Origin: Callorhinchus milii
Lineage: Eukaryota
Direction of reading: 5' to 3'
Length of the DNA: 64,000 nucleotides
Assembly (NCBI RefSeq): GCF_018977255.1
Contig: NW_024704742.1
Coordinates: 74,836,001 to 74,900,000 of the forward strand
Made by a program: the position numbers and the translations under genes. Positions 27,625 through 64,000 of this stretch are shown piece after piece. Every line of letters starts with the position of its first letter. The first letter of the stretch is position 1. Below the pieces are notes generated by a model. That model was not told where the DNA came from. It ran no database searches and was given only the letters and a program-made list of their open reading frames with translations.

Positions 27625-29063
27625 TGGCCCCTACCCATCCCTCCCCCCACACCTTCAATCCTATCTGTCCCTCCACTCTCACCACCATAGTGAACAAAAT
27701 GAAACCCACCACCTGCTCTCTCGACCCCATCCCTACCCCTCTCCTTACCTCCAGCTCCACCTCCTTACCCCTCGACTCACAGACATCATCAACCTCTTCC
27801 TATCCATTGGCACCATTCCCACCCCTTAAAAACAGCCGTCATCACCCCCATCATCAAAAAACCTCTTTGACCTCTCTGCTGCCTTCGACACTGTCAACTA
27901 TTCTATCCTCCTCCGCTGCCTCTCCTCTCAGCTCAACCTTCATGGTTCTGTCCTTGACAGGTTCAGATCCTATCCCTCACACTGTCTCCACTTCATCACC
28001 ACAGATGGCTTCTCCTCTAGCCCCCGCATTGTCTCGTGCAGGACTGTGATTGTCCTTGGTCATTTTCTCTTTAATATCTACATGCTCCTTCTTGGTGACA
28101 TCAGCCACACACATGGAGTCAACTTTCACATGTATGTGGATGTACTTTATCTCTCTACCCCCACCCTCGACCCTAGGACCACTGCTATCCTGACAGAATG
28201 TCTATCAGACATCAAGTCCAGGATGAGAGTTAACTTTCTCCAGTTGAACATCAACAAGACCGAGGCTCTCCTGAGTGGCTCCCGTCAGCGCCTCCTCACC
28301 TCAGGTGCTGACAGCATCACCATCCAAGGATACACACTCTACCTTATTGAGCCAGTCCAGAACCTTGGTATCTTGTTTGACACTTAACTGTCCTTTCTAC
28401 CCCACATCTGTGCCAAGATCCACTCTGCCTTCCTCCTCCTCCGCAACATTACCCGGCTCCATCACTGTCTCTCCTCCTCAGGCCGCTGAGACCATTATCC
28501 ATGAATTCATTACCTCCAGGCTTGTCAGCCTCTCAACTCTTCTCTCCACAAGCTGCAGACGATTCAGAACTCTGCAGCTCAGGTCCTCTCCCGCACCAGG
28601 CTCTGTGAACCCATCAACCCCACCATCGCGCAACTCCCCATTCCCAAGAGGATAGAGTTTAAAATAAAGCCCTCCATGGCCTTGCTCCTTCCTACCTCTG
28701 TGAACTGTTAATTCTATATCGACCTGTCCGCTCCTTCTGTTCAGGAGGCTCTGGCCTGCTCCACATCACTCGCCTGGCCTGCCCCACCATCGGTGGTCAG
28801 GTCTTCAGCCTCTCTGCCTCCACCCTTCGGAACTCCATCCCAAGGTTCTTTCGCCTTGCTTCCTCCTTTGCCTCCTTGAAGGCACGTCTCAAGACTCTCC
28901 TGTTCGACCGTGCCTTCTGACACCCTCCTACCTCTACCCTCCCTGCCCTCCACCCTTCCTGATCCCAATCCCTCCTCGGGTCCACATCTCTGACTGCCCA
29001 ACGCCTTGGCATGTCCTCTCAATGTGAAAGAAACTATGCAAATATAATTTGTTGTTGTGGTTG
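27625..29063 (+). mobile_element. L2 LINE fragment (RT to 3' tail)
   Basis: MKPTTCSLDPIPT, FLFNIYMLLLGDI, NFLQLNINKTEALL motifs; tail near 29000-29060. Confidence 0.93.
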
Positions 29064-42998: not shown

Positions 42999-43019
42999 AA
43001 GATGGTGTGAGGACAGGAG

Positions 43020-45380
43020 GAGAAGCCTTTCATGGCCACAAAGTGGCATATAAAGTAGGCATATGCCTACATCAATAAAGGGGCTACTGCTAAAACTAGG
43101 GTTCCTTTGATGACTAGAAAAATTAAAATGAAATAAGACTTACAAGAGAGGCATACAATAAATATAAATAATACCAAAGAAAATCAGGCAGTGTATAGGA
43201 AATAAAGAAGGGAAACAAAATAGCTAATGAAAAGGTAGGGCCAATTAAGCATTAAGCAAAGTCTAGGGTAGAAAATTAAGGTATTGCAGAGATACTTAAT
43301 GAGTATCTGGCCTCAGTTTTTACAGAAGAGAGAAATAGTGAGGTTATAGAGTGTACAAGAGGAGAATGTGCAATTGGAAGTGAGAGCTATAGAGAAGGAA
43401 GTGCTGCTAAAGAAACTCAAAGAGGACAGGTCACCAGGGCCTGACGGCAGCACCTGAAAATGTTGAAGGAGTCGGGGAGAAAATAGCCAATGTTTTATAA
43501 TTTTTCGAATATCTTTGGATTTGAAAGTTGTGCCAGGAGACTGGAGGATAGTTAATGTAATGCCTCTGTTTAGGAACGGAGAATGGGAAGAGCCAAGTAA
43601 TTATAGACCAATTGATCTTAATGTTCATAGTTGGCAAACTTTTAAAGGTTATAATAGGGGATAATATTAAACCAAATGTAAGGATTATGTTAATATAAAT
43701 AACCAGTTGGAAATAAATGGGTTGATTAAAGACAATCAGCATGGATTTGTTGAAATCAAGTCTTGCCTGACAAAGCTAAAAGTTTTTTTTGATAAAATAA
43801 CCGAGTAAATAGTGAAGGCAATGCTGTGGATGTAGTATACAATACAAAATTACATCAGTAAAGTGCATTTCACATCGGGAGGACTTCCCAAGGCGCTGAA
43901 CAGTCAGGAATTAGGACTCAAGTGGGGGGTTGGGATCAGGGAGGGTAGAGATGGTGGGGTAGGAGGGTGGCCGAAGGCACAGTCAAAGAGGAGGGTCTTG
44001 AGGTGTACCTTAAAGGAGGCAAGGGAGGGAGCGAGGAGAAGGGAATGTGGGATGGAGTTCCAGAGAGTGAGGGCAGAGAGGCTGAAGGCCATAGTATATA
44101 TGGATTTTCTGAAAGCTTTTGCTAAGGTCCTGCATTGGAGGCATGTTAAAAAAGATTTAGTGCGAATGGTATTAATGGAAAGATAGCGACATGGATAGAA
44201 AGTTGGTTGGTTGAAATAGGCGGTGGGAGCACAGGGTTATTTGCAATGGAGAAATATAAATAGTAATGTCCCCCAGGGGTCAATGTTCAGACCACTGCTG
44301 TTCTTTTATATAAACGATGATCTGGATTCTGTATCAGGGACACAATTTCTAAATTTTCAGATGACACAAAAATAAGGAGTGTAACTAACATTGTAAGTAA
44401 CTTCAGGGGGACAGAGACAGATTAGTTAATTGGGCAGGGAAATGGCAAATGGGATTTAATCCACACGAATGTTGAATTATACATTTTGAGAGGAAGAAAA
44501 AGGAGCACACGCATATGTCGGGTGGTAAATATTAAAAGGGGTGGAAGATCAAAGAGACTTGGGAGTTAATGTACATAAATCCTTGAAGGTGTGAAGCAGG
44601 TATGCAAAGCTGTTGAAAAAGCTAATGAAACTCATCAAGGATAACTTATCAATCTTTCCTTCAATACTCCAGCTATTCAAGTACTTTGTAGTTTTGAGAT
44701 ACTGTACTTTGAATAACTAGTCTACTCTGATAAGTAGGCATTTGAGCCATTACTCTTGGGGTGGCAAGATATCAGAGTTTCTCTGCAGGAGTGTATATTA
44801 TTAAAAGCAAAGAGGTAATGCTAAATTTATATACATCATTAATTAGACCGCAATTAGAATATCGGTTTCTAGTATTGATCACCCCACTCAAGGCAATAGA
44901 GGGAGAACAGAGAAGATTTACTACGATGCTACTAGGGATGAGTGGTTTGGCGGATGAGTGGAGATTGAAGGAACTGGGACTTTTTCCACAGGAAAAAAAG
45001 TTGAGGAATGACCTGGTCTTTAAAATTACAAGGGGCTTTGATAAAGTCAATAGGGAGAAATTATTTCCACTGGTTGGTCAATCAATAACTAGAGGGCATC
45101 AACTTAAGATAATTTGTAAATAAGCAAATGGAGAGGTTAGGAAATTTTTTTTTATAGACAGAGAAATTAGGACATGGAATGCCCTGCTGGGAGCAGAGGT
45201 TGAGATAAAATCCATACTGGCCTTCGAGCAGGCACTCAACAAATACTTTAAAAAGAGTCAGCTACAAGGTTATGGGGAAAGGGCAGATAAGTGGGACTGA
45301 AAGGATTGCTCAAGGGAGCCAGCACAGACACAATGGGTCAAATGGCCTTCTTCTGGACCATAAATTTCTATGGTTCTGTA
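43020..45380 (+). mobile_element. Old CR1 LINE (RT region to 3' end) with insertions
   Basis: NYRPI, QHGF, VYMDFLKAFAKV, VPQGS, KFSDDTK and LIRPQLEY motifs; 3' end aatttctatggttctgt. Confidence 0.9.
43840..44091 (-). mobile_element. L2 3' end inserted in CR1
   Basis: Flanked by a 7-bp duplication TAGTATA (43833-43839 and 44092-44098) inside the CR1 VDVVYMDF codons. Confidence 0.9.
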
Positions 45381-45964
45381 ATAGATAGCAGTGACAGAAG
45401 AACTAACTCAGCCCAGAAACGTACCTGGCATGATAAAAGGAAAAAAATAATACAAGGGCTTGGTTAATAAGATAATCTGGTAATAAAATGGTTTGTTGTC
45501 ACCATGGATAATGTGAGTCATAAATATAACTTGTGTTGCTAACATGGTAAATAGTAACAGAGGGACTAATAAACAGTGCTAGTGATTTGAAAGTCATGTG
45601 ACAGAGGATGACCTTGACTGACAAAATTGAGCAAGACTCACATCGGTTGCTAATATGTATGGTAATGATTGAAACCAGCTTGCCTTGGGCTAAGTTGCAT
45701 ACAAACAGTGATGTATCCACTAAAATGGATCAGAACCATAATTGGTTGGGTGCTAATGAACTGTAATCATACTTCTTGACAGATTAAGCCTGTTCAGTTT
45801 ATCCCTCTTTCATTTGTTGGATTTTACATGTCTTGGAGCACAAGTAGTTGGAATGAAGAAATTTGTTTCAGTTATAGAGCAGCTATTGGCACAATTCTAT
45901 GCATTCCTTTATATTGATCCTGTTGACAGATGAGGTAATCAGGTGATGGTATAGTTGACAGTGA

Positions 45965-45970
45965 TTTATT
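45965..45970 (-). promoter_or_regulatory. Candidate polyadenylation signal of the P450 gene
   Basis: AATAAA on the minus strand about 340 nt downstream of the stop codon; ATTAAA variants also occur near 46103 and 46012. Confidence 0.4.
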
Positions 45971-46312
45971 GATTACAGCAAATCTTAACATTACTCAATG
46001 TGCTACCAATGTTTAATAACTTACTATTGATTCCAAAGTCACACCTTTCACAATCAAATTAATAAATCTATATGTTGTAGTAAAACACCAACAGGACAGA
46101 TCTTTAATTTTTTTCTGTCAAAGATAGTACATGATGGTGGCTGTTGTATATTTGATGATATAAAACTGAGAAAATCAGGTGGTGTTATTGAACTCAATTC
46201 CATCCTATCCTTTGAGACTGGAGTTACATTATGACTTATTGATCACGCAGATCTGTGATTGTTTGAAAATATGTTGAGTTATCCGTGTAGTTCACAACAG
46301 CATGACTTAGTG

Positions 46313-46453
46313 TTAGGTTTGGCAAAAATATGACATAAACTTAATTGTGGGATCTTCAGCAGGTCTAGAGACTGGAAGCCACTTGTAGTCCAGAGTTTGG
46401 GTAGGAGGGTCCAAGCTCCATGTGTAATGGCTCAGCAAATATCTGGCAGCAGC
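46313..46453 (-). CDS. cyp16a1: Cytochrome P450 (CYP16-like), terminal coding exon
   Basis: Minus strand: acceptor ctgattttctctaag, then AAARYLLSHYTWSLDPPTQTLDYKWLPVSRPAEDPTIKFMSYFCQT and TAA (141 nt). Phase 0, in frame with the heme exon; reads as P450 L-helix end plus C-terminal strand. Too short and ATG-less for the ORF track. Confidence 0.88.
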   Translation of the reverse strand, partial: AAARYLLSHYTWSLDPPTQTLDYKWLPVSRPAEDPTIKFMSYFCQT

Positions 46454-46651
46454 CTTAGAGAAAATCAGACATAGATCAGTTTCATCAAAGACTAATTCAT
46501 GGGAAAGAATAATACAGTAACAATGTATACAATGAAGAGAAGTGGGTGGGTTGGAGCAACAGTGCAGAATTGTGTATGCTAATAAACTGTCAAATTTAGG
46601 ATTGTCTCACTAGGCTCTGTATAACGAATTTACAATATTAGCAAAGGAACA

Positions 46652-47030
46652 TTTTTTTGGGGGGGTGGGTGTCAGCTGGGTATCTGACACATGCAGAAAC
46701 CCATCCCTATGCTTCAGAGTATCCAAACCAAGCTGAGATTTCCCTGCACCCCACCTATACATGGAAATCCCAGAGATAGATTGTTGGAATGGAATGTGCA
46801 CTCTCTCCCTGGAGGGACACATCCTGCTTACCTGATTCCGGAAAGTATGCAATGGTGTGGTCTGCCCTTCCAGGTCCTGCCATCAGCAGTGCCCTGGAAT
46901 ACTGTGGACCCACCTGGCTCAGGAACTGGACTACCGAGACACTATAAGGACTGACTCGATTCCAACATTCCGTTGCCAGGCATGTCACCTTGGAGCCAGT
47001 TCAGCTCCAAGGAGACCTCGCTTACCTCCC
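46652..47030 (+). repeat. Unclassified interspersed repeat, copy C (internally deleted)
   Basis: Both ends match copy B; lacks about 220 bp of the middle. Confidence 0.85.
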
Positions 47031-47864
47031 CCCAAGGAGATTAGTCACTAGTTGGTCGTTTGACATCCGACAAGCCAGGTTTGCGAACTCACAAGGTGGT
47101 CAACACAGGAGTGGGATAGTGTCTCAGGACGCTTGAATAGGCAGACATCTGAGGATAACACAGTGCTCTCCTGGGGTGCTGGAGTGTCAGTCGAGATTAT
47201 GAGCTTCTCCTGACATGAAAGGTGCTATACAAATGTAATTTGTTGTTGCTGTTATAAGATTTCATGAATTATGTTAAATAATTAAAAAATTACAGTCACC
47301 TAATAAAAATGCAAACTCATGTATTTCATAAAACTCTAGATGAACACCAATCCTAACTAGAAGATCAGGAAAGTAAATGCAGAAGTGGAAAACAGTTTTA
47401 AAATTTGAATTAGTCACCCCAAGATTTCATTCACAGTACAGTATTTATAGTGTAACTACAACAAGAACACATTAAACCTATGTGTCACTTGCATACAAAT
47501 ATATTAAAGTGCAAAATTGTCCATGTGTTGAATCCTGCTCTGTTGCATACCAAATGCTATAATGTACAAAGTTTTCTTGTGGAGAAAAAGGCTGCCTGCC
47601 AAGGCCATATGATTAAAATAAAAACATATAGCACCTTCAGAACAAACCTCTCAAAATGACTTTCAAAGACAATGGAAACCATCAACCAGGGAGGAGGAAG
47701 GAGTTTGGGGGATGTTGAACAAAGGCAGTGGTCAATGAGAATTTTGTAACAAATATTTGTCATTTTGCAAAGGTTAAGGCAGAAACATTATGTAAAATGT
47801 AACATCAAAATCAGAAGCTTGAATATTACTTGTCCTTAATCTATGAGGGATTCCATACAAGTCC

Positions 47865-48620
47865 TGGAGTCCTATAGGTTAGGGGTTAGAGCACTCGTCT
47901 CGCAAGCGAGAGACCAGGGTTCAATTCCTGACAGGGCGAAAGCTTGGGCAAGTTTCCTTACTCCACATGCCTGATAATAATCCCTCAAGAAAAAAAAACA
48001 CGACTGTTTGTGGGACACTGCTGTGCGCAATTGGCTGCCGCGTTTCATCCACAAATATAGTCAATTCACTTTACAGTATATTCTGTGAAGCGCTTTGAGA
48101 TGTCTAGAAGATGCCATTCACGGCCTTGCTCCCTCCTACCTCTCCAACCTACTATCCCCCTACCTACCTGCCCGTATCCTCCGTTCCTCTGGCTCTGGTC
48201 TGCTCCACGTCCCCCGCCCCAACCGCCCTACCATCGGTGGTCGGGCCTTCAGCCTCTCAGCCCCCAGGCTCTGGAACTCCATCCCCCAGTGCCTTCGCCT
48301 TGCTTCCTCCCTTTCCTCCTTCAAGGCCGGTCTCAAAACCTTTCTCTTTGACCGAGCCTTCAGCTCCCCTCTCGACTCTCTTCCCCCTCCTCGCTCCCTC
48401 CCTTCCCTCCCCTCACCCTGACCATTTCCCCCCTCCTTGCTCCCTCCCTTCCCTCCCTCACCCTGACCATTTCCCCCCTGCTCGGGTCATGACCCAACTG
48501 TGCAGCGCCTTGGGACGTCCTCCTGACGTGAAAGGCGCTTTATAAATGGAATCTTGTTGTTGTTGTTGTTGTTGTTGATGTGATAAGGCTCTATATTAAA
48601 TGCAAGGATTATTATTATAT
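47865..48620 (+). mobile_element. SINE split by a young L2 3' fragment (48114-48577)
   Basis: SINE tail interrupted at tctagaagatg and resuming at tgataagg; the L2 insert has an unbroken frame HGLAPSYLSNLL…LKTFLFDRAF and (GTT)n. Confidence 0.93.
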
Positions 48621-49061
48621 ATAACAAGATACCTTTAAGCATCATAACATTGTTTATACATAATCTGTTATCTATATCAAGCGAACATTTGATACAGCAT
48701 TTTAGCCAAATATGATGTATGAATAATTAAGAAGAAAATTTATTCCATTGCTTGTATAATGAGTCAATTCTTTTGTGCTCCATTTGAAGCCATTACAATT
48801 TAGAAGGAAATATCACAATTTATAAACATATCAAAGAGATAATGCTTTTGTAGCTCTAAACAAAAGTAGCCTACGCCCAATGGATTTATGTATACTGCTG
48901 AAAATAAATGTATTTAATAGTTTAAATATGTAATATTTATTTTAGTATTCTCTGATTTTTAATTTTGATATAAAACGTACTTTAAATATTTATTTATGGT
49001 TGAATTCTTTTAAAAAATAAATAGCTAGTAAATCAAAGAAAACCCCAGTGGAAAAAACACC

Positions 49062-49191
49062 TGGGTTCCTATTTAATGCTAGGTGAACAGAGGCGTGTGA
49101 AGTAAGGAAACGCTTCGCCCTGCCGGGAATCAAACCCAGGTCCCCTCGTTTGTGAAGCGAGTGTTCGAACCACTAAGCTACAGGACTCCAC
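49062..49191 (-). mobile_element. SINE head fragment (long subfamily)
   Basis: gtggagtcctgtagcttagtggttcgaacactcgc… on the minus strand. Confidence 0.85.
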
Positions 49192-49439
49192 AGACTGAGT
49201 CTGATGCCGTGCATGATCCATGAACCACAACAGCATTGAAAACCCCCACTCTCCTCCCCCCGGCAGCATTGAATCAGCTTCTGAGTGCAACCGTATCATT
49301 AAAATATCATATCTTGCAATTTTCACCCCAGGTCTACTGTCTGTATGATATCGGTGGCTTCTGGAAGACCTGTCAGCTATGCAGAGAGCTCCACGTAAGG
49401 TATGATTAAAGTACTAGCTCAGACCCAGCATCTGTAAAA

Positions 49440-49915
49440 ATAACAACTTGCGTTTTATCCAAGGTCTTTGACAAGGGTAATGTCTCGAAACTTGGTACAG
49501 AGAAATCCCCATCAGAGAGAGTGGGAAAGAATAAGATGACCATAGCCATGCTTGAAGAGTTTTTCAGGCGGCTCTGAAAGACAGATAGAGAGGGGGCAAG
49601 TCAGAGGGGTTTAGGAGGGCATTCCAGACAGTAGAGGCATAGTGGCTGCAGGTTGTTGGGGCAGCCGGGATGGGAACATACAACAGATCACAGGTATATG
49701 TAGGGGTGAGAGCAAGTAACAATTTGAAAATCAGAATGAGGATCTTGATGGTAGTCAGGAAGTTCTGGTAATGGGCATGCAAACTTAGTGTGGATAAGAA
49801 TGTGAGCTACAGAATTTTGAATGAGCTGGAGCTTGTGGATGGTACATTTAGAGAGTACATTTGTGAAGGAGGGCATTGAAGAAGTCCAGTCAGGAAGTAA
49901 CAAGGAAATGGACAT
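49440..49915 (-). mobile_element. Old L2 3' fragment
   Basis: TIHKLQLIQNSVAHIL and IKILILIFKLL motifs. Confidence 0.8.
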
Positions 49916-50164
49916 AGATCGTCTACCATATATATGATCATGTTTTATAAAATTCTTCTTATAATGTGCCAATCCACCGATTCAGTAACCTTTCACACAT
50001 CCTTTCTATGTCATACGTCCAAGTCAATGATGGTGCTAACAACAATAATACTTGCATTTGGTACAGTGTTTTTCATGTCAGGAGAACATCTCCAAGCAAT
50101 TCACAGGATATACTGTAAAGTAATTTTAGGTGAATGCAGCTGCAAGTTTGTGCACAGCTGTCCT

Positions 50165-51790
50165 TCCTTCCTCATATCTGATCCCTGACCAGGACCGCTT
50201 TCCTCCACCTTCGCCACATTGCCAACCTCTAAACATACTTTACATCCAACGCAGCTGAAACCCTCATTCATGCTTTCGTCACCTTGAGTCTACTTTCTCC
50301 AATGTCTTCCTTGACTGTCTCACCAGCTTCAACACCACAAAATCCAACTGATCCCAAACTCCACTGCTCGTATTCTCCCATCTGTTCAGGCTCAGCACCA
50401 TCATCAACACAGTCCTTGTCAGGCTCCACTGGCTCCCCATTGCAGAACTGATCAAGTTCAAGATTCCCACACTCACTTACAAATCAATTCATGCCCTAGT
50501 ACTTCCCTACCTCTCCAATCTGCTTGCAACACCTCCACCACTCAGCCTTCTACATGGCCCTCATCCCCTCCACTCCACCATTGATTGCCGTGCTTTCAGG
50601 AACTATGCCTCGAATCTCTGGAATGCTCTGCCTGAATCCCTCTTGGTGACATCATCCACAGACATTGGGTCAATTTCAACATGTGGATGACACCCAACTC
50701 TACCTCTCTGCCTCCACCCTTGACCCTAGAATGTCCGTCAGACATCAAGTCCTGGATGAGAGCCAACTTTCTTCAGTTGAATGTCAACAAGACCGAGGCT
50801 CTCCTAACTGGCTCCCATCAGCGCCTCCACACCTCAGGCGCTGACAGCATCACCATCCATGGATGCACTCTCCAAATTACTAGGCCAGAACCACGGCATC
50901 TTGTTTATAATAATAATCCTTGCATTTGATATAGTTTTATCCTCAACTATCCTTTCTACCCCACATCAGTGCCATGACCCGCTCTGCCTTCCCCCACCTC
51001 TGATACACTGCCCCACTGACTCACACCTCAAGCTGCCGAGACCCTCATACATGCATTCATAAAATCCAGGTTCGACTACGCAAACTATCTGCTTGTTCGC
51101 CTCCCCAACTCCTCCGTCCATAAGCTGCAGATCATCCAGAACTGTACAGCTCATGTCCTTTTCCACACGAGGCCTTGTGACCCTATCACCCCCATCCTCG
51201 CCTGACTCCACTGGCTTCCCAGCACACAGAGGATACAGTTCAAGATCCTGGTCCTCACCTTCAAAACCCTCCATGGCCTTGCTCCCTCCTACCTCTGCCA
51301 CTTCCTAAACTCCCTACCAACTTGCGCGCTCCCTCTGCTTAGTGGACTCTGACCTGCTTCATGTCCCCCACCTCACGCGACCCACCATTGGCGGGAGGGG
51401 TTTCTGCCACTCTGCCTCCACCCTCTGGAATTCCATCCCGCAGTCCCTCCACCTCGCCTCCTCCCTTGTCTCCTTCAAGACCCTTTTCAAAACCCTCCTA
51501 TTCGACCGAGCCTGCGGTCAACCTCTTTTGCTCCCTGCCCGATCCCGACCCCCTGCTCAGGTCCGAAACACTGATTGTCCAGCGCCTTGGGATGTCCTCC
51601 CTACATGAAAGGTGCTATACAAATGTAATTTTGTTGTTGCATGACTTTAGATCTCATCTGAAGTCCTTCCTCTTTGATCATGCCTACAGTCACCTCCCCT
51701 CTCTCACTGGTTCACATCAAGCTGTTCCACTGTTAAGTGCTCTGAAACGCTGCCTGTGAGAAGGGCATTCTATAAAAGCATGTTGCTGTT
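50165..51790 (+). mobile_element. Older L2 split by a younger L2 (~50641-51640)
   Basis: Older copy stops at LWNALPES and resumes at FRSHLKSFLFDHAY; the insert has DIKSWMRANFLQLNVNKTEALL and its own tail. Confidence 0.9.
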
Positions 51791-52687
51791 GAGCTGAATC
51801 TGCCAGCTTGTATAATGCTGAGAGTAGTTCCATTCTCCAGCACTGAGAACCCTCACTATCACCCAAAATTGAAAAATGAAAATTACTTTTGTCTGAGTTT
51901 CCTCCCCAGAAGAGAAGCTGCGGTGGCAATGAAGACAATGGCAGCCTTGGCTGACTGAAGGCACAAAATATAATAGGAATTTTTTTTGGAAAGTTTCATA
52001 TATAAAAACTTTAAAAGGCAGATCATATGCATATCTGATAGAACATTCATACTGTAAATGAGACGCTGTCCGACATGAAGTGTTGTGCTCGTTGTTGTAA
52101 TAGTAAGTACCACCACCGGCCTTGATTGTCTTCTACAGTGGAACAACTAACTCACTCCGTTTCTACCAGAACGGTCGTCACGTAATTAACTGTTATGTAT
52201 TCATTCACTGCATGGCTAAAATTATACATAATGATAATGGCCCATATGGTTCCACCTACTCAGCTCCATCAAATGCTGTTAACTTGACTTGATCAGCATT
52301 TCTAACAAACACTTTCGACAGCTAATCTTCGTCATGCTGCACTTCCTGCTCCCTTCGGCATTACTAATAAAATGAATGACACAAGGAAAAAAAAACTGTT
52401 CCAGTGATTAATGTGAGCAGCATTTATGCTGATGCCTTGTGGCAGCAAACCATTTCTCAAAGCCAGATGAAGATCATTGAAAAATGCAAAATCAATTCTG
52501 CCGCTCACTGAACAGGAAGAATTCTGACGAACTCATGGGCAAGAGTAAAAGAATATAATACTGTGACGTTGGCAGTTGTACATTTACTACCAATGAACTG
52601 GTAACAATGGATTTGCATAGTTAAGTCTGGATGTTATGAATGCGAGTATGAGGATCTTGGCGGCCTGTGGTGGAGCCGGGCAATGAA

Positions 52688-53996
52688 TACACAGGAACAT
52701 AGGAATTTGAAGCAGGAGTAGGCCATTCGGACCCTCGAGCCTGCGCCCCCATTCAATAAGATCATGGCTGATTTTCTAACCTAACTCCATCTGCCTGCCT
52801 TATCCCCATATCCTTTAATCCCTTAGTCTTTTAGAAACCTATCAATCGCAGTCTTGAATATGTTCAAGGACTGATCATCTACTGCCTTCTGGGGTGGAGA
52901 ATTCCATAAATTCACTACCCTCTGAGCGAAGAAGTGTTTCCTCAACTCTATTCGAAAGGGCTGGCCCTTAATCTCAAGACCGTGATCCTTAGTTCTAGAT
53001 TCTCCTAATAGTCTCATACTGTCTACTCTGTCAAGCCCAATAAGAATTTTATATGCTTCTATAAGATCACCCCTAATTCTTCTATATTCTAGAGAATATA
53101 GGCCTAGTTTACTCAACCTATCCTCATAGGTCAACCCCCTCTTATAATAATAATAATAATCCTTGCATTTGATATAACGCTTTTCACTTCGGGAGGACGT
53201 CCCAAAGCACTTCACAGAACAAACTGTAAAGTGTAAAGTGAATTGACTGCATATTTGTGGGCGAACGCGGCAGCCAATTGCGCACAGCAATTCTTCCCAG
53301 GAACTAACCTAGTGAATCTACGCTGCACCCCCTCTAAGGCAAGTATGACCTTTCTTAAATAAGAAGACCAAAACTGCACACAATATTCTAGGTGCCGTCT
53401 TACCAAGGCCCTATACAGTTGCAATAAGACTTTCCTACTCTTGTATTCTAACCCTTTTGCAATAAATGCCAACATGGCATTATCCTAGTTGCTTGCTGTA
53501 CCTGAATACTAACTTTTTGTGACTGGTGTACAAGGACTCCCAAATCCCTCTGAACACTAACTAGTCTCTCCCCCTCTAGAAAATAATCTGCTTTTCTGTT
53601 TTTACTACCTAGGTGAATAATTTCACATTTCCCCATATTATATTCCATCTGCCACCTTCTTGCCCATTCACCTAGCCTATCTACAATCCCTTTGCAATCT
53701 TTTTGTATGATCCTCAGAGCTTACTCTCCCACCCAGCTTTGTATCATCCACAAAATTAGATATCTTAAGTTTTATGTCCTCGTCTAGATTATTGATATAG
53801 ATTGTAAATAGTTGAGGCCCAAGCACTGATCCTTGTGGCACTCCACTAGTCACATCCCAACAATCTGAGAAGGACCAGTTTATCCCTACTCTCTGTTTTC
53901 TTCCCGTTAACCACTATTCAATCCATGCTAATATATTGCCTTTAATTCCATGGGCCCTAATCTTGTGTAGCAGCCTTTTATGTGGCACCTTGTCCA
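52688..53996 (-). mobile_element. CR1 3' fragment containing a SINE tail (53144-53291)
   Basis: GVPQGSVLGPQLF, NFVDDTK, EYCVQFWS motifs; same subfamily as 7379-8300; SINE insert flanked by TCTT. Confidence 0.95.
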
Positions 53997-54167
53997 ATAG
54001 CCCAATCTGGAGACAACAGCTGATCACCACCCACTTGTCTGACTGACAGGTGACCTGGCTGTCCCCCCTCCCTCATTTAATCCTGTTTTGGGGGCTATTT
54101 TATTGGGTCCTAGTTTAAAGCTTCTATTTCCAATGATTAAGTATCATTGGTGTTTATGACTGGAAAG

Positions 54168-54375
54168 AGATACTTATTGGGTACCCAGACACTTAGACCC
54201 TAGCATTGGGAATCACAGATACTTGGTTCCTGGTACTGGGTGAGGGGGCAGAGACAGGTTACAGATACCTAAACCTCTGTATTGGGGACCCAGACACTCA
54301 CATCCCAGCAATGGGGGTTTCAGATACCCTGATCCCACCATTGAGGGACCTCGACACTTAATTCCCAGTATTAGT
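54168..54375. repeat. Degenerate ~30-bp minisatellite
   Basis: About 6-7 units resembling cagacacttanatcccagcattggggacc. Confidence 0.7.
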
Positions 54376-54624
54376 CATTCCAGTAACCCAACCCCTTGCA
54401 CTGGCATTCTGAGAAACCCGCTCCCAATATTGGGGAAAATACTAAATTTAAATACAAAATATAAAGTCTGTCTACTACACTTCTCCCCACTGGTAACATC
54501 AAAGCAAGGAAAACCAGAATCAGATTTAGAATATATTATTGTCTGGAGTTCTGAAATATGGGACTTAATCCTCATTTTGAGTTGCTGGAATTTATCCCGC
54601 AACATAAAGAGTAGAAATAAATAC

Positions 54625-54712
54625 CTTCACGATCATGTTGTTTAGTTCAATGCCAATGCAATTCCTCGGGCCATTCCCAAAACAACATAGAACATTTTCT
54701 TGTCCGGCATTT
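54625..54712 (-). CDS. cyp16a1: Cytochrome P450 (CYP16-like), penultimate coding exon carrying the heme-ligand cysteine
   Basis: Minus strand: acceptor gttttgttttccag, then an 88-nt exon (1 nt + NAGQENVLCCFGNGPRNCIGIELNNMIVK), then donor AAG|gtattt. Contains the P450 signature FxxGxRxCxG. Family assignment is from recalled similarity to fish CYP16 proteins and has not been searched. Confidence 0.9.
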
Positions 54713-54899
54713 CTGGAAAACAAAACCATTTTGATTATTACAGCTTTTTGCAGTATACTTTCACTTTTCACATAAAACCACATATTTTAGATATAAAACT
54801 ATAGACAGAAAACCACATATTAAACAGTCCCATTCGGAGTCCAATGTTGTATTTATTTCTCCGTTGCTAATTTGGTTGAATTTAAAGAGTATTTTTCTT

Positions 54900-55440
54900 G
54901 TTTATAATAATCTTTGCATTTGATATTGAGCCTTTCACATTGGAGGATGTCTCAAAGTGCTTCATAAGATTAACTTCATTATTTATGATTATATTTTGAG
55001 GCGAACACAGCAGCCAATTTGCACACAGCAGTGTCCCACAAACAGCCATGGAATGATTAACCAATTTTATTTGGGGGATTGTTGGCCAGGACCCTGGGAC
55101 AATCCCCCTTCTCTTTTTGAATAGTGCCAAGGAATCTGACAACAACAACAACAGTTTGATTTATATAGCGGTTATATCAGGATAGTGTCTCAGAGCGCTT
55201 AAAAGTGGCAGAGCTTGACGCCAAGTCAGGGAGAGAAGGGAGGTGACCTTAGGCTGCACAGGCAGGAGGGAATTCAGTTTAATGCAGGATCCGAAGGCTG
55301 CTACCTCCGACATTGCAGCACTCCTCCAACACTGCATTAGAGTGTCAGCTGAGACTGTGTTCAAAATCCCAAAGTGTGGCTTGAACCCACAATCTTCTGA
55401 CTCAGAGATGAGGGTGCATCTAACTGAACAAGGCTGACAC
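54900..55440 (-). mobile_element. Old DeuSINE (SacSINE1-like) interrupted by an L2-type tail (~55139-55260)
   Basis: Tail, central ctttttgaatagtgcca segment and head ttgaacccacaatcttctgactcaga…aaggctgacac. Confidence 0.8.
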
Positions 55441-56173
55441 CCGTTAGTCAACAAACGTATCTGCATTAAAAAGAATCATTGTATTAGAATACTTTACATT
55501 ACTTGAATTTAATTTCAAATTTAAATCGCATAGAGGCAACAATCGATAATAATTGATGTACCAAAGGCTTTATGCTATTTTTATATTGTGGTTCTGGAAA
55601 CTTAAGTCTGGAGTGAAAGCAGAGCTTGTATAACACAACCTCTTCAGGCAAACGATATTCCACGTCCACGTGAAAATCTTCATATCATTGTCCAAATGAT
55701 ATCAGACTATTTTTCCAATTCCCCAAAATACACCTATTGGTGGTTTGCATATATGTGAATATCTATACATGACTGCAATGCTCTCACGATAATGTTAAGG
55801 CATCTGCACAAAAACAAATGGTTATTGGGCTCACTTGTCCTGCAACTTGTCACCAGAGTCTCCATCTATAGACGTGTCTTCTGTAGGTAGAGACAATCAT
55901 TATCTCTATTGTCAGATCTGCATTTGAGCAATTCTGAACTCAGGAAAACCAGCCATTCCAAATCCACAAGTATCCTTCAGCATCTCACCCAGGTGATCTT
56001 TCTGAAGTATGACAGGAAGTGCCTGCAGGCTCTATTGCACTTTAGACAGCACCCTGTCATTACCCAACTTCCATCCACACAAAGCGTTTCAATAGAAATC
56101 ACTAAGTAGGATCAGGAGTGGAGTGTACCTTGTACTTGCCCCATCAAGTTTAATCCTTGTAGGATTAATCCTT

Positions 56174-56490
56174 GTGGAGTCCTGTAGCTCAGTGGTTAGA
56201 GCACTCGCTTTGGAAGCGAGAGACCCGAGTTCAATTCCAGACAGGGCGAAACCTTGGGCAAGTTTCCTTACTCCACACGCCTAATAATAATCCCTCCAAA
56301 AAACAAAACAATAATAAATTGGTCATTTTCAATCAACAACTGTTTGTGGGACATTGCTGTGCTACCGCGTTCGCCCACAAATATACAGTCAATTCACTTT
56401 ACAGTGTGTTCTGTGAAGCGCTTTGGGACGTCCTCCCGAAGTGAAAAGCGCTACATCAAATGCAAGGATTATTATTATTATTATTATTAT
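56174..56490 (+). mobile_element. Full-length young SINE
   Basis: A box TAGCTCAGTGG, B box GTTCAATTCC, stem-loop tail and (ATT)n; followed by an L2 fragment to about 56670. Confidence 0.95.
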
Positions 56491-58232
56491 CCAGCCCTGC
56501 ATGTCCCCGCTCTGCCTGCTCCACTATCGGCAGTCGGGCGTTCCACCTTTCTGCCCCCACCCTCAGGAACTCCACCCTTCCGCCTGGCCCCCTCCCTTGC
56601 TCTCTTCAAAGTCCATCTCAAGACCTGCCTTCTTGAACGTGCCTTTGGTCACCTTCCCTCCTCCACCAACCTTCCTGTGGGACCTTCCTGGTGTGTTTGG
56701 TTCAATGTACACGCCGAGTGTGCACACATTGAGCCATCAAGGCTGCATCACTCTGCTTTTAGAAAACATAATTCACAGATCTGTAATTTTAGCATTACAG
56801 AAGTATCATATTTCAGAATAAAACTACATAAAATCAGAGTAAAAGCACATAATGTAATTGTAACATGGAAACAATGCAAGTATAAATGGCAGGAGTGGAG
56901 CTGAGGTAAAAAAAAACTTTTCAGACTAGGAAATCCACCAGTTTGGCTACAAAGATCAAGCTGATTTTATCTGTGAAAAGGAGCAGTGACCCTATTAGAA
57001 TGTGGCCAGTTGTATACCAGCCAGCAGAAAATCGAGGTCATAACAATTACACTAGGACTAAAATCAGCAGAAAATAAACAGCTGAACACAACATATAGAG
57101 AAACCCTACCGTAAAACTATGCCCTCATCTATCAAAATAATTTAATTTATAAATTTCAGTCTAACGTTTTCATATCAATCACATTTGCACAAGTTAAATG
57201 CTGTTTTAAATCCCCTTCTGCCACTGGCAACACAAGGAAGAAGACAGCATGAGGTAATATTGTCTTTGATTCTCTAATGAACCAGACAGGAGCTCTTTAA
57301 AGAGCCTGGCATTACTCTACTGATTGTCTGCTGAGCACATCTGATTCAATCTAAGATCGAGCACATCACAGTCAACAAGAGTAACACACTACACAGTGGA
57401 GAGGAAATTAAGCGACTTGATTTTGTATTTTGAGTAATAGGTGCTAATTGTATCCTGTGGCCTGGTATCTCCCATTAATCAGCAGGAAGGAAGTGAATGA
57501 TTAGCCTCGATCTAGTCTCATAGTGTATGATTGGGCTTTCAGATTGTCCAGTTTAATTCTCAAACAAAGGCTAATGACGGGCAATGTGACTGATACTGTT
57601 CTGTGGATGACATGTGCTGAATGATTTGTTTCATTTGCTACAAATGCCCCTTCCATCCTGTACTCTTCCTGGGATTGCAAGTCATTGAACAAGTCCCCTC
57701 TGTTCTCCGTTCTGAACAAATTGTACATGGTATAAACAGGAATAACGATTAAGATTTATGCTTAAGGATATATTTTCATGGGATGGTTCCAAAAGCATTT
57801 GAGATTGATAAAATTGAGCTACAGCACAAAAATAAACAATCTTTGCAGCTTTCAGAAGCTATCCAGAATCTCAGTTAAATCAGAATAAACAGCACTGTGG
57901 ACAACATAATCTAGTTATAACATTTTTAAAAAACAATAAATGTTAGGAGTGCAGCTGAGGTAAGAGAAACATATTCAGAATAGGAAACAATAATAGCTAA
58001 GATCTAACTCCAAAGGAATATAATCAGAAATTTGGAAAATGTACAAAGTGAGAGCTGTATTTTTATAGTTCCTTTTTATGTTCGCTAAATGTAATGACTG
58101 TTTTTTAAGGCAAATCTGATAGTCTTTTGCAGCAGCAAAATCCCACAAACAGCCACCAAATGAATGACCAATTAATTTGGAAGATTGTTGGACAGGACAC
58201 CAGAAAAAACTCTTTTTGTGAATCGTGCCTTT

Positions 58233-58560
58233 ATAATAAATAATAATAATAATAATCCTTGCATTTGATATAGCGCTTTTCACGTCAGGAGGACGTCCCA
58301 AAGCGCTTCACAGAACACACTGTAAAGTGAATTGACTGTATATTTGTGGGCGAACGCGGCAGCCAATTGCGCACAGCAATGTCCCACAAACAGTCGTAGA
58401 TTGAAAATGACCAATTTAATTATTGTTTTTGGTTTTTGGAGGGATTATTATTAGCGTGTGGAGTAAGGAAACTTGCCCAAGGTTTCGCCCTGCCTGGAAT
58501 TGAACTCAGGTCTCTCACTTGCAAAGCGAGTGCTCTAACCACTGAGCTACAGGACTCCAC
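58233..58560 (-). mobile_element. Full-length young SINE nested in an old DeuSINE (~58100-58740)
   Basis: Near identical to 381-705; flanks continue an older SINE body and head. Confidence 0.95.
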
Positions 58561-58944
58561 GAATGGCACTTTGAATCTTTAACGTCCTCTTGAGCAGATG
58601 GGACCTCCGATTTTTAACTGAGGGAAGGTAGCGAAGGCAATGTAACACTTCCCAGTAATACACTGTAGTGTATTTGGGTTGAAGCCACAAACCTCAGGCC
58701 TAGAGATGAGAATACTACTAAAGGAGTCATGCTGACACATAAGGATCTTAAAGAGATGGGTCAAGATTTCAGGTTTCACTCTTTATAAGAACTGAAATGG
58801 TGGGGAACACCTATATACAACACCAATATGTTTAATATTATGAAGTCTCTATGTATAGACTGTTTCCACTTGTTGATGAGTCCATAACAGAACTATAAAA
58901 GGTTTAGGGGAACGTCTTTACACAAACCAGTGTGGGAATGTGGA

Positions 58945-59225
58945 ACTAAACAAACAAATTATATTTGTATAGTGCCTTTCACTTTGGGAGGGCTTCCGAA
59001 GGTGCTGGACAATCAGGGATTTGGAACTGAGCTGGGGGTTGGGGTCAGGAGGGGTGGAGGGCAGGGAGGGTAGGAAGGAGATCCAAATCGTAGTCGAAGA
59101 GCAAGGTCTTGAGATGGTCCTTGAGGGGGGCAATGGAGGGAGTGGGGCAAAGGGACTGTAGGATGCAGTTCCATAGGGTGGAGACAGAAAGGCTGAAGGG
59201 CAAACCGCTGATGGTGGGGTTGGGC
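58945..59225 (-). mobile_element. L2 3' end
   Basis: Tail and ORF2 end. Confidence 0.8.
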
Positions 59226-59935
59226 TGCAGAATAGCTTTTTCGATTTCTGAGTGTGCAGGAGAAATTGCTTAGAATGATTAAACATGAAAAGGCTCCTTA
59301 AGTTGTCATATTAAGTTGTCTTCTCTCAGCTAAATCAGGAAGAGAGAATGAATGTCATATGTCTCCTTACTGATTTTATCTCTGCACACTAGATTATAGG
59401 AGAATATATTAAAAAAAGCAGATTCCAATAGGAATCTAAGCAGCAGCCAGCTGACATCATTGGCCAACAAGTGGTGTTTATTTGAAGGATTTGAAGCTGT
59501 GCACTGAAAAATAATTCACACAATATAGCTTAACGATAAACAGCAGCAATTTTGATAAAATTAGCTATCCCTAACTCTAATAATAATCCTTGCATTCGAC
59601 ATAACAACTTATCATGTTGTCAGGTTTCAAAATGCTTTACAGGATTTTCTGTACAAAGTAGTGTATTTGAAGGCAAATGTCTGCAAGTTAAATAAAATAC
59701 ATAAGTAAGCTGAATAGCATTATAAAATATTGGGATGGGTAAAATGGTAGTCCAGTACTCATCAAGTTCAATGCTGAGCTGCAACAAACAGACAAAAACA
59801 TTTTACTATATAGTATTGTATTACCTTCCCAATGAGCAGTATTTCAATATTCAATCATTTCATAGCATTGCAGTAAAATTTTATCGTGAAAGGATACTGA
59901 CATTCCAATATGGTTTGCAATACTGTAGTAGTAAT

Positions 59936-61085
59936 ATCTTTCTCTATCTCTCTGCCTCCACCCTCAACTCCAGGACCACTGCTGTCCTGACAGACTGTCT
60001 GTTGAACATCAAGTCCTGGATGAGGGCAAATTTCCTACAGTTGAATGTGAACGAGACTGAGGCCTTCCTGATTGGCACCTCAGGCTCTGGCAGCATCAAC
60101 CTCCATGGTTACACACTTCAGCTCACCAAGCCAGTCAGGAACCCAGGTGTCTTGTTGACTCACTCTGCCTTCCCTCACCTCCGTAAAATCACCTGACACC
60201 GCCACTACCTCAGCCCTCAGGCCGCTGAAACTCTTGTTCACTCCTTCATCACCTCCAGGCTCGACTATGAAAACCCCCTGCTTGTCGGCCTTCCCAACTC
60301 CTCCCTCCACAGGCTGCAGATAATCCAGAACTCTGCAGCCCGTGTCCTCTCCCGCACCAAACTCTGTGACCCCATCTCCCCCATTCTTACCCGACTCCAT
60401 TGGAGGATCCAGTTCAAGATCCTGGTCCTTACTTACAAAGCCCTCCATGGCCTCGCCCCACCCTACCTCTGCGACCTCCTACCAACCCACCTGCTCCTTC
60501 CGCTCAACCGGCTCTGGTCTGCTCCAGGTGTCCTGACCCATCCGCCCCACCATTGGCAGGAGAGCCTTCAGCCACTCTGCCCCCAACCTCTGGAATTCCA
60601 TCCCCCAATCACTCTGCCTCGCCCCCTCCTTAGCCTGCTTTAAGTCCCGCCTCAAAACCTTCCTCTTTGACCATGCCATCAGTCAACCCCCTTCCCCAAC
60701 CTTCTTCCTGACCCCAGCTCGGGTCTGAAATGCTGTACACTATCCAGCTCCTTGGGACGTCCTCTCGACGTGAAAGGCGCTATACAAATGTAATCTTGTT
60801 GTTGTAATAATAATAACGGTAAATATATTTGCAGTCAGCATTTAGTTCAGGGATGAATTAGGGACTGGACATCCAGCACTTCCATATCACTGTGTATTAA
60901 TTGTGACTTCTAGAACACTTTGATATCCACAAGAACAGCAACAACAAAATTACATTTATAGAGCACCTTTCATGTTAGGAGGACGTCCCAAAGCCCTGAA
61001 CAGTCAGGTGTCATGGCCCGAGCATGGAGGAGGAGTGGTGTAGGGGTGAGGGAAGGCAGAGAGGTGGGAGGGTGACCAAAGGCAC
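59936..61085. mobile_element. L2 fragment (+, 59936-60805) and L2 3' end (-, ~60933-61085)
   Basis: NIKSWMRANFLQLNVNETE and AAETLVHSFITSRLDY motifs; two tails. Confidence 0.9.
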
Positions 61086-62199
61086 TCTGGTGATAGTGGG
61101 GTTGAACTTGCAATACTTTGTTTGCAAACCTCAATGCACCAGGCAAATTACAGTTTAGGAATGAAATGCAAAATTCACTATGAAAGAAACGTAGAAAATC
61201 CTGATCCTAAGGTCTGCAAAGTGCTGGTATTTCGGTCTCCAGCTTTCTGTCAAACTTCCAGCCCGGAAACAACCTGAAAGCAAAAGCCAGTTGCCACACA
61301 AACAGTGAGTGCAACCCAGATGGCTAGGATGATTCAGGTAGTAAAATTCTTAACCTGTACAATGCTGTGAGTGAGTTCACTAATCTGCTGCTACCTGTCT
61401 CAAACAGTCTCAATAAGCTGATTTATTTGTGCACTCTATTTTGGTAATTTAGATTTGAAAATCACATCAAGGTGAAGTCAACATTCACATCACATTGATA
61501 TCTTGTTACTTCTATATAGTGAAGCAAAGCCAATGGTCAATCTTTCACCTACATGCTGCCTGCAAAACTAGTCTGATTTCACACAAAAGAAAAACATTTG
61601 GAAAACAATCTTGCCCCTGCCTCCCAAAAATGGATAGTGGAAGCTGAGAGACAAATATAAGATTTGAACATTAAAATCATAAAGGTTCAAATGAGTACAA
61701 AAGAGTAGAAAATAGTAAAATAGTTAATATAAAATGAGAACCGCCAAAACTGAAAAGAAAATAGAAACAAAGTGATAGAAGGACAAAGACAGTTAAAAGT
61801 TTTTAAAATGTTTATTTACCATCATGAAACATTGGTATATGTCTTGGAGGATATACTTCCATCCTCCTCAAGGTGCGACAGGTTTGAAGATGTATGGATA
61901 TCTTCAAGGCTCATTGATAAACCAGATAAGCTAGATGACAATCAGGAATTCAATGAAGGACTGCAGATGTCTGGCTCTTTGAAAACATGTCTCCTCAGAA
62001 CTAGTTTAACCCAGGAAAAACCCACTTACTTCCCCCTGCAAGTGGGATATTTCTGGATGTCACGCTTATTTCATCATCCTTGGGATTTGAACCCTCTGGA
62101 CCCAAGTCTGAGATTTGGACATTTTCTTTTATTTGATTTAGTCAAATATTTTGGAAATGCATCTTAGTGATTGATTAGGTTTGTTAATAAAATGATTTG

Positions 62200-63780
62200 G
62201 GCATTTGACATGGCATCTTATTATGCTAAAACATCTCAAAGTGCTTCAGAGATTTCTGTAAAGTGTTGGGACTGTATTAGTCAGTTAAGGTATCAGGTAC
62301 TTCACACACAGCATTGTCCCACAAACAACCATCAAGCAAATTACTTTGTTTAAACAGACCAGAACACTTTCAGAAACCCCCTTCTCTTTTCGAAAAATAC
62401 CATGGAATCTTTAAAAACTGAATAGGTAAACGGGACCTCGATTTAAAGTCTCACCTGAAGGATGACTCCTCTGACAATGCAATGCTCTCCCCAGCCTAGA
62501 CTGTGAACTCAAAGTTCAGACATGACTGCAACTATTGTACGTTGAAAGGAAGTTAAAGAATCCTGACACTTTACAGCAGAAAGCTGAACATGCTTCTGCC
62601 AGCTCTCGATAAGAACAATCCATTTAACTTTTGTTTACTAATCTTTATGCATTTTTCTTTTCCAAATACTTTTTAATTCCCTTTTAAAAACTATTATGGA
62701 TTCTCCTTAAATCACCATTTTTGGTGAGAAATTCCTACCAATCCTAAAACAACAGCAACAACAAACTGCATCAAATGCAAGGATTATTATTATTATTTAT
62801 ATAGCACCTTTCACATAGGGAGGACTTCCCAATGCCCTGGAATCTTTCTAACCATTCTCTTTGGAGCTTTTTGGGAAGTTATGTCATCTTGTTACCAACT
62901 CACAAATAGTGGAAATAAAGTAGTTGTTCTCTAGTTTAAAACCATCAATAATTTTGAACACGTTTATAAGGTTTTTTTCAACTCTGTAAAACAGTCTCAG
63001 TCTCTCTGGTTCCCTACTCATAAGTCTTTCTTTCTTGGTATCACCCCAATAAATGACTCCCTAGCTTTGACAACTTTCCTAAAGTGGGGCTCCTGGACAC
63101 AGTACTCCACCTGCAGCCTAACCAACGACTTGCACCGATTTAGCATTACTTTTGTTTGTATTCTATGCCTCTATTTCTGAAACTTAGCATCCAATTAGCT
63201 TTTTTTTAAAAAAACAGTTTTGTTAACTTACCCTCCCACTTTTAAAAATTTGTCTATGTTAACCCACGGAGCACTCTATCACTCCTTGTAAGATTTCATC
63301 CTTTTGTATACATTTGCTCTCAATCTTCTTCCCAAAATGTGCTACCTCACAGTTTTCTGCATTAAATGTCATCTGTCTTCCCAATTCACTAATCTCTCTA
63401 TTCTCCTGAAGTCACTTACAGGCCTCATCGCAGTTAGCCACACTCCCATAAAGCCGGAATGATGAATGATCACACTTAACATCTACTGATAATGATAAAC
63501 CTTAATTATTGTGCTCCTGTTTATTGCTTTGTGTTCTAATAAATATTACCTGAAATTGAATTAAATTAAATAATAATAATCCTTGCATTTGAAATAGTGT
63601 CTTATCATGTTGTTAAACATCTCAGAGTGCTTTGCAGGAGTTATTATAAGATGTATTGACTGCGTATTTGTAGGCGATCATGGTAACCAATTTGCACACA
63701 ACAATGTGCTGCAAACATCCATTAAATGAATGACCAATTTTATAAAGGGGATTGTTGCTCAATACAATAATCCTGGCCAA
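62200..63780 (-). mobile_element. Old DeuSINE (~62200-62510), old CR1 3' part (~62640-63450) and SINE fragment (~63570-63780)
   Basis: SINE body motifs; CR1 remnants QVEYCVQEPHFRK and FNAENCEVAHFGKK on the minus strand. Confidence 0.7.
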
Positions 63781-64000
63781 ACCTTGCCCAGTAGTGGATT
63801 TCTTTGGCATTCCTTGCCCACCTGCTTAAGGGGTCCTTATCTGTCAACATGCATCACATTTGGATAATTGATTTTCAATGTTTGAGGAATTTTCTATTGA
63901 AATGACATATGCACTTCACATACAGTGGGGATTTTACTTTCCATACAAAGCACACAGGTACTACACTTCTCATTAAATCAGTATGAGATGTGCTTCTCAT

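Follow-up and report, generated by a model that had tools for sequence, protein, structure and literature searches.

The last two exons of a CYP16 cytochrome P450 gene in Callorhinchus milii, with a lysine-type I-helix in its family and putative exchangeable pocket segments in cartilaginous fishes

The stretch of DNA analyzed here, referred to as the window, comprises 64,000 nucleotides (nt) of Callorhinchus milii (contig NW_024704742.1, positions 74,836,001 to 74,900,000 of the forward strand) and harbors on its minus strand two spliced exons of a cytochrome P450 (P450). It is next to certain that a CYP16 gene (clan 16) of C. milii, intact and spliced, ends in these exons. In the direction of transcription, the locus is composed of the following features, given in window coordinates.

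Beyond 64000, minus strand: PERW-containing exon and all earlier exons, outside the window
54713..64000, minus strand: 3′ part of the upstream phase-2 intron, longer than 9.2 kb, acceptor AG at 54714-54713
54625..54712, minus strand: penultimate coding exon, 88 nt, residues 347-375 of the protein of 421 amino acids (aa) and the last base of the Arg346 codon
54658..54660, minus strand: codon encoding the heme-thiolate residue Cys364 (motif FGNGPRNCIG); all 84 rows of alignment A5 (see below) have Cys here
46454..54624, minus strand: last intron, 8171 nt, GT-AG, phase 0, holding copies of a tRNA-derived short interspersed element (SINE) and a repeat resembling a long interspersed element (LINE)
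46313..46453, minus strand: last coding exon, 141 nt including the stop codon, residues 376-421 with the conserved KWLPVSRP
45750..46312, minus strand: probable 3′ untranslated region, its end not fixed, with contig pieces 46137-46452, 45956-46122 and 45750-45957
46108, 46017 and 45970, minus strand: hexamers in the probable 3′ untranslated region, ATTAAA starting at 46108 and 46017 and AATAAA at 45970

An AG acceptor and its pyrimidine tract precede each exon; a GT donor is found at 54624 and a TAA stop closes the reading frame, the two exons encoding 29 and 46 residues, respectively. Their lengths, splice sites, phases and translation had been given in a preliminary description made from the letters of this DNA, and all of these are confirmed: the spliced 75 aa form the exact C-terminus in all seven C. 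milii models tested, and the last exon is 100% identical to two C. milii protein clusters whose members are RefSeq XP_007890111, -112, -115 and -116 together with UniRef entries. In the C. milii models the 75 aa are preceded by PERWSER, and the split Arg codon implies a phase-2 upstream intron, which bears out the PERW-containing exon ending in phase 2 that the same description had predicted. A tblastn search with four full-length proteins found no other CYP16 exon in the window, and the upstream intron must therefore exceed 9.2 kb. The FxxGxRxCxG heme motif occurs a single time in the six frames of the window; because one of 100 dinucleotide-block shuffles of the window also yields a motif of this type, it is by itself modest, suggestive evidence. 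The 88-nt exon gives a weak Pfam p450 match (E 0.0033, under the cut-off), and the KWLPVSRP region of the last exon is, by its position, what we take to be substrate-recognition site 6.

Transcript evidence comes from four runs of three studies, compared over 43000-55200 as contigs and not as raw reads, with their RNA nature being a guess. In run X1 a 1616-nt contig with a depth of 39.9 covers 46137-46452 (record positions 1-316) and continues with 54624-54714 (record positions 317-407), gapless in record coordinates across the 54625/46453 junction; the shift of the junction by one base is accounted for by the G common to donor and exon start. The remaining 1209 nt of this contig extend past the compared stretch and, by arithmetic, offer room for the remaining 1037 coding bases plus about 170. 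Since the other three runs (X2, X3 and X5) cover the exons as separate pieces, the splice junction rests on this one contig, which is probably RNA, and on the annotation. A low-depth piece of run X3 (46445-46608) spans the intron-exon boundary, and further intronic pieces lie at 51684-52532 and 54107-54417; such low-depth intronic contigs are either pre-mRNA or DNA carry-over.

From the junction evidence and an identity of 70-77% to intact shark and ray proteins, the gene is very likely a working one, as had been proposed. That the exons are a pseudogene relic or chance exons is scarcely credible: just two of them lie inside the window and their junction comes from one contig in one of four runs of presumed RNA, but against this stand the full-length 421-aa models, the intact orthologues of sharks and rays, and an X1 contig long enough for the entire coding sequence. 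The load of transposable elements in the intron, which had entered the earlier argument for a working gene, is uninformative on function (self-repeat cover is 45% for the intron and 36% for the whole window).

Membership in the P450 superfamily is evident from the FxxGxRxCxG, ExxR and PERF-type motifs as well as from the P450 fold (PF00067, E 9.3e-41). The CYP16 family and clan were reportedly defined by Nelson (2013) and Dermauw (2020). According to the nomenclature rules, an identity of at least 40% to a named member denotes the same CYP family and one of more than 55% the same subfamily. Aligned with the Nematostella model P0305, the C. milii protein shows 176 identities in 421 columns (42%), and P0305 in turn agrees, as compared by eye, over about its first 345 residues with the committee-named Nematostella CYP16D1, listed in the accessible portion of the supplement of PMC8110760; the heme exon of P0305 is mis-modelled, such that the public model lacks the heme-Cys exon present in the curated CYP16D1. 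On the grounds of this identity the CYP16 call holds, and the grouping with CYP16D1 in a phylogenetic tree supports it as well. Identity to the Oryzias latipes protein P0048 amounts to 60% (measured against P0005, with no named CYP16A1 sequence in the comparison), the benchmark for the CYP16A subfamily being teleost CYP16A1 itself.

The tree, a quick maximum-likelihood calculation on 42 rows with midpoint root and the thorough search unfinished, gives support values in the Shimodaira-Hasegawa-like approximate likelihood-ratio test of 100 for the vertebrates, 91 for the animal clade and 84 for the whole clade of proteins with the lysine-type (Lys-type) I-helix described below. Within the animal clade the vertebrates are nested with sponges, cnidarians, an annelid, a mollusc and echinoderms, and outside of it are found a choanoflagellate, Mesostigma, a red alga and unnamed proteins. 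CYP120-like, CYP110, CYP4 and CYP26-like rows stand apart from the Lys-type clade, and several long branches meet. With its midpoint root and a chimeric model as CYP26 row, the tree does not settle the link between CYP16 and clan 26. The relationship to CYP26 proposed in the preliminary description stands insofar as CYP16 clusters with clan 26 in one phylogeny, but CYP16 is now assigned to a clan 16 of its own (both from the accessible text of PMC8110760). Likewise, NAGQ is a CYP16 signature in the vertebrates, but is absent from the named Nematostella CYP16D1.

Other assignments were considered and rejected. Membership in CYP120 or CYP26 calls for at least 40% identity and an AGHET-type I-helix, and is contradicted by 24-25% identity to CYP120A1 and a different I-helix, with no intact CYP26 in the comparison. 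The database names CYP3A, CYP90A1, beta-amyrin 11-oxidase and CYP120 are best-hit artefacts, with identities of 20-25% to solved CYP3A and CYP120A1 and of 17-18% to CYP90B1. A canonical microsomal P450 monooxygenase is equally rejected, as both the acid-alcohol pair and the N-terminal transmembrane anchor are absent, and so is CYP152 membership, given Lys-Ala instead of Arg-Pro and the retained heme-loop Phe. The CYP74 clan is marked by an insertion in the heme-binding loop and a catalytic I-helix Asn, whereas the protein family described here has canonical heme-loop spacing and Asn is rare at 243-244. CYP74, CYP8A and CYP5 do not occur among the 50 rows listed, an absence that speaks neither way, and the ESM Atlas yielded generic P450 clusters, nothing more specific.

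Automatic annotation has named the C. milii entries beta-amyrin 11-oxidase, CYP90A1-like, 26A1-like and 3A9-like; the gene, a member of a named orphan family, is annotated, though under wrong names, and the locus as such is not new. By a hand count of the 120 matches listed out of 242, the family is present in at least about 75 ray-finned and at least 13 cartilaginous species, and judged from these sequences CYP16 is therefore common among fishes, where automatic names obscure it. This differs from its reported rarity in teleosts: the accessible text of PMC5751882 describes CYP16 as lost in mammals, absent from zebrafish and reported only in fugu, and that of PMC11184212 states that most teleosts lack CYP16, that its function is unknown, in agreement with the earlier claim of no known substrate, and that among Oryzias species O. 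latipes alone shares CYP16 with O. curvinotus. Oryzias melastigma has a CYP16 gene (P0063, P0115), which contradicts the latter statement as it reads in that part of the source.

All named members among the matches listed are aquatic; no tetrapod or otophysan name is found among them (120 of 242; 94), which is not a test of absence. The description of the family as one of animals is too narrow, as the matches include a choanoflagellate, a red alga and Mesostigma, the algal records being transcriptome- or annotation-derived and contamination of the choanoflagellate and algal records being possible. Two fish-derived patterns gave 24 matches in prokaryote genomes and no relative, which is a weak test, and viral contigs searched with the divergent member P0205 gave no match.

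The protein anatomy described in the following is that of database proteins, as these regions lie outside the window. CYP16 proteins begin right at the Pro-Gly motif, without a membrane anchor. A 19-residue hydropathy of at least 1.6 in the first 60 aa is reached by two of 188 Lys-type proteins (380-520 aa, isoforms counted), and 11 of 15 comparators have an N-terminal 19-mer with a hydropathy of at least 2.0. In alignment A5, the 84 rows of which were picked by us after viewing their I-helix, at most 10 residues precede Gly6 in 64 rows; for C. milii the start is that given by the protein models. The Nematostella CYP16D1, as seen through P0305, shares the anchorless start and the Lys-type I-helix.

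The C. milii I-helix reads LLLFISALIPKALASLL. In phmmer, hhalign and hmmsearch alignments alike, Lys248 falls where CYP120-type I-helices have the acid and Ala249 where they have the Thr; the Lys248-Ala249 pair is preceded by one or two additional residues, and Leu-Ile-Pro stands before it. ExxR, PERW and the heme Cys are retained. Across A5, Asp or Glu at positions 244-250 is found in none of the 84 aligned members, the groove Gly is replaced by Ile or Val in 80, and the invariant columns are Tyr137, Lys248, Asp328, Cys364 and Gly366. The I-helix had been part of the profile that initially ranked the 149 representatives, and scoring blind to this helix is less circular: 72 of the 149 match both protein halves and 66 of these carry the Lys (57 called by script, nine retyped by eye), among them all of the top 44, the other six being CYP120-like outgroup rows and the 77 left-out representatives fragments or distant multi-domain P450s. 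Two CYP120-like proteins outside the Lys-type clade, P0236 and P0204, have non-canonical I-helices of their own; in P0236 the acid position holds a Lys and the next position a Glu, an arrangement that seems to be of separate origin.

The spacing between Lys and ExxR is 36-38 residues in 70 of 96 proteins measured versus 53-56 in 32 of 39 canonical helices, and the J region is about 17 residues shorter than usual. In the structure predicted from a deep alignment (predicted local distance difference test, pLDDT, 93.8; predicted template modeling score, pTM, 0.93) the I-helix is broken at 242-244 and helix J runs directly into helix K; an earlier model from 38 fish rows is weaker (75.5) and lacks the I-helix break.

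A second peculiarity concerns the B′ region. The annotated C. milii isoforms X1 and X2 (here isoform A, XP_007890111, and isoform B, XP_007890112; unrelated to the run labels used above) differ at residues 64-89 alone, with five of 26 positions shared. In the alignment this segment spans the position of CYP120A1 Trp80, which we take to line the substrate pocket; the position is occupied in CYP16 by Tyr (segment B and invertebrates) or Pro (segment A). Segment B is found by pattern in records of six cartilaginous species and by eye in a seventh, Rhincodon; chimaera and elasmobranchs have 17-21 of its 26 residues in common. Segment A is found in 88 of 93 ray-finned representatives and the B-like pattern in none of the 93, where clustering at 90% may hide isoforms; in the 38 fish rows of alignment A1 segment A has an invariant Lys-Asp-Pro. 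As 57 of 62 non-vertebrate members are nearer to segment B and five nearer to A, segment B looks ancestral and A, with its Lys-Asp-Pro a vertebrate innovation relative to the invertebrate members, looks derived before the split of cartilaginous and bony fishes.

From the protein isoforms, tandem 78-nt exons, predicted to be of phase 1, are inferred for segments A and B, and alternative splicing appears to exchange part of the substrate pocket in sharks and chimaeras; mutual exclusivity is uncertain, with both segments present in three cluster representatives and neither in several. The two segments would alter the roof of the pocket, and hence the substrate, in cartilaginous fishes, whose two alternative segments set them apart from Nematostella CYP16D1 and teleost CYP16A1. 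Splicing of CYP4F3 reportedly alters the B′ region via mutually exclusive exons. CYP4F3 belongs to another clan, and the CYP16 switch is a prediction from protein models, some of which have both segments or neither. For CYP4F3, a single splice choice that switches the substrate from leukotriene B4 to arachidonic acid is described as rare in the accessible text of PMC7434440.

In P450s the acid-alcohol pair of the I-helix supplies the protons for O2 activation, and the CYP152 peroxygenases have a carboxylate-binding Arg and a Pro in place of this pair (accessible text of PMC5818669, PMC11842817 and PMC9112060). A basic residue at the acid position, no adjacent hydroxyl group, a bulky groove, a short J region and the lack of an anchor are jointly suggestive of a reductase-free catalysis that employs an anionic group of the substrate. 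The reading we favor, with a probability of roughly 0.36, is that CYP16 is a soluble, peroxide-driven P450 in which Lys248 holds the substrate carboxylate in the manner of the CYP152 Arg. Such an enzyme would work without cytochrome P450 reductase; Lys248 would hold the anionic group above the heme, most likely the carboxylate of a fatty, retinoid or apocarotenoid acid, and the bound carboxylate would perform the acid-base catalysis on H2O2 for which CYP152 uses its Arg-bound carboxylate. CYP16 resembles the CYP152 enzymes BS-beta, SP-alpha and OleT in being soluble, in a length of about 420 aa and in a basic plus a non-hydroxyl residue replacing the acid-alcohol pair, and differs from them in having Lys-Ala and not Arg-Pro and in mostly keeping a heme-loop Phe which CYP152 lacks; with 16% identity, any such likeness would be convergent.

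A number of observations weigh against this reading. A Lys cannot form the bidentate contact that Arg can make, and the canonical acid generally faces away from the heme, as the Lys248 side chain may do too. The J′ region has a role in reductase binding. The I-J loop Pro lies at +16 in 26 and at +17 in eight of 105 members, compared with +17 in 23 of 39 canonical helices, which leaves the register uncertain by one residue, although neither register gives an acid or alcohol in C. milii or restores the acid-alcohol pair. Ser or Thr occupies the alcohol position in 10 of 84 rows, and five members have a spacing of canonical length (54-59). Most members, 54 of 62 outside the vertebrates and 100 of 127 within them, retain the Phe that lies seven residues ahead of the heme Cys, and a peroxisomal targeting signal of type 1 ends none of the 189 proteins tested. 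The nearest solved fold is retinoic-acid-bound CYP120A1 (Z 40.9, rmsd 2.6, 401 aligned residues), tied with CYP90B1 (Z 40.4), whereas CYP152N1 follows at rank 20 (Z 35.7, 16% identity). Where the Phe is replaced, Leu is found in 18 and Gln in four of the 127 vertebrate members (P0077 and P0092 among the ray-finned fishes), and the Gln cases seen are eels.

An O2- and NAD(P)H-dependent monooxygenase, for instance a retinoid or terpenoid hydroxylase like CYP120A1 and CYP26, is a possible but rather doubtful alternative; protons would then come from substrate or water, electrons via reductase, cytochrome b5 or ferredoxin, and Lys248 would be structural or substrate-fixing. P450s which hydroxylate without the full acid-alcohol pair do exist, such as CYP39A1 and EryF. 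Synechocystis CYP120A1 (PDB code 2VE3), itself soluble, is the closest solved relative in sequence (profile E 1.8e-65) and fold and shares the pattern of Ser, Leu, Ser-Phe and Leu after the catalytic positions, the heme-loop Phe is retained, and the clustering of CYP16 with clan 26 in the accessible part of PMC8110760 would agree with such a function. Yet CYP120A1 has AGHET and a long J region and reaches no more than 24-25% identity, and in CYP16 both residues of the pair, the anchor and the J region are lost and the groove Gly has given way to Ile or Val in nearly all rows of A5.

Enzymes such as CYP74, thromboxane synthase or prostacyclin synthase, which rearrange or cleave fatty-acid hydroperoxides or endoperoxides, operate without the canonical pair and need no reductase, so that a partner-free reaction of this kind would draw on the same anatomy as the peroxide-driven reading, and a spread over algae, a choanoflagellate and aquatic animals would fit oxylipin chemistry. 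It is unlikely all the same, and equally unlikely is the part that Lys248 would have in it, namely binding the substrate carboxylate or peroxide: an I-helix Asn is typical of these enzymes but present in one of 84 rows at 243 and four of 84 at 244, and the canonically spaced heme loop has no CYP74 insertion. More improbable still is a role as ligand sensor, carrier or small-molecule reductase, in which CYP16 would be a non-catalytic or atypical heme protein with the Lys ligating or capping the distal heme face. The shift of register by one, as allowed by the I-J Pro, would put the Lys at the alcohol position beside the iron, and in A5 the Lys varies no more than the heme Cys does; three alignments, however, prefer the acid position, and conserved pocket residues together with the alternative pocket segments point to a selected substrate.

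In the literature on CYP16 and clan 16, as far as accessible, no substrate, lysine, missing anchor or alternative segments are mentioned, though Nelson 2013 and Dermauw 2020 may note some of these; a degenerate I-helix is noted for CYP20 and not for CYP16 in the accessible text of PMC8110760. Searches of the literature on CYP120A1 Trp80, anchorless vertebrate P450s and animal CYP74 found nothing.

The window also contains repeats. A tRNA-derived SINE family of about 325 bp is present at 381-705, 12685-13004, 56174-56488 and 58239-58560, the copies being 87-96% identical to the first, with fragments at 47865-48104, 49095-49191 and 53144-53291; the tRNA calls by ARAGORN and Rfam in the window are the heads of these elements. 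Reverse-transcriptase fragments (RVT_1) of LINE copies lie on the plus strand at 3054-3665 and 27830-28384, and related repeats at about 28086-29057, 50637-51639 and 59942-60805. Downstream of CYP16 (window 1-45700) no second protein-coding gene was found in a scan of 37 of 119 long stop-to-stop frames, which may miss short exons and returned the two reverse-transcriptase fragments and one match under the cut-off.

The interest of the family lies in a predicted catalytic center of Lys type common to all of it, the absent anchor and the conserved pocket switch. Taken together, CYP16 may, on a rather doubtful reading of these sequences, represent an ancient soluble and reductase-free line of eukaryotic P450s, retained in lineages as far apart as algae, choanoflagellates, sharks and most ray-finned fishes, whose invariant I-helix lysine would serve peroxide chemistry on an acid, with a splice switch in cartilaginous fishes between an ancestral and a derived pocket kept since the split of chimaeras and sharks. 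For a conserved splice switch in a P450 pocket, CYP4F3 is the one precedent found. CYP16 is among the few vertebrate P450 families without a known reaction, and the missing anchor should ease expression, while Lys248 and the A and B segments make this orphan directly testable. If the favored reading is true, CYP16 would be a natural vertebrate P450 peroxygenase, and a peroxide-driven vertebrate P450 would mean a chemistry new to animals and possibly a cofactor-free biocatalyst.

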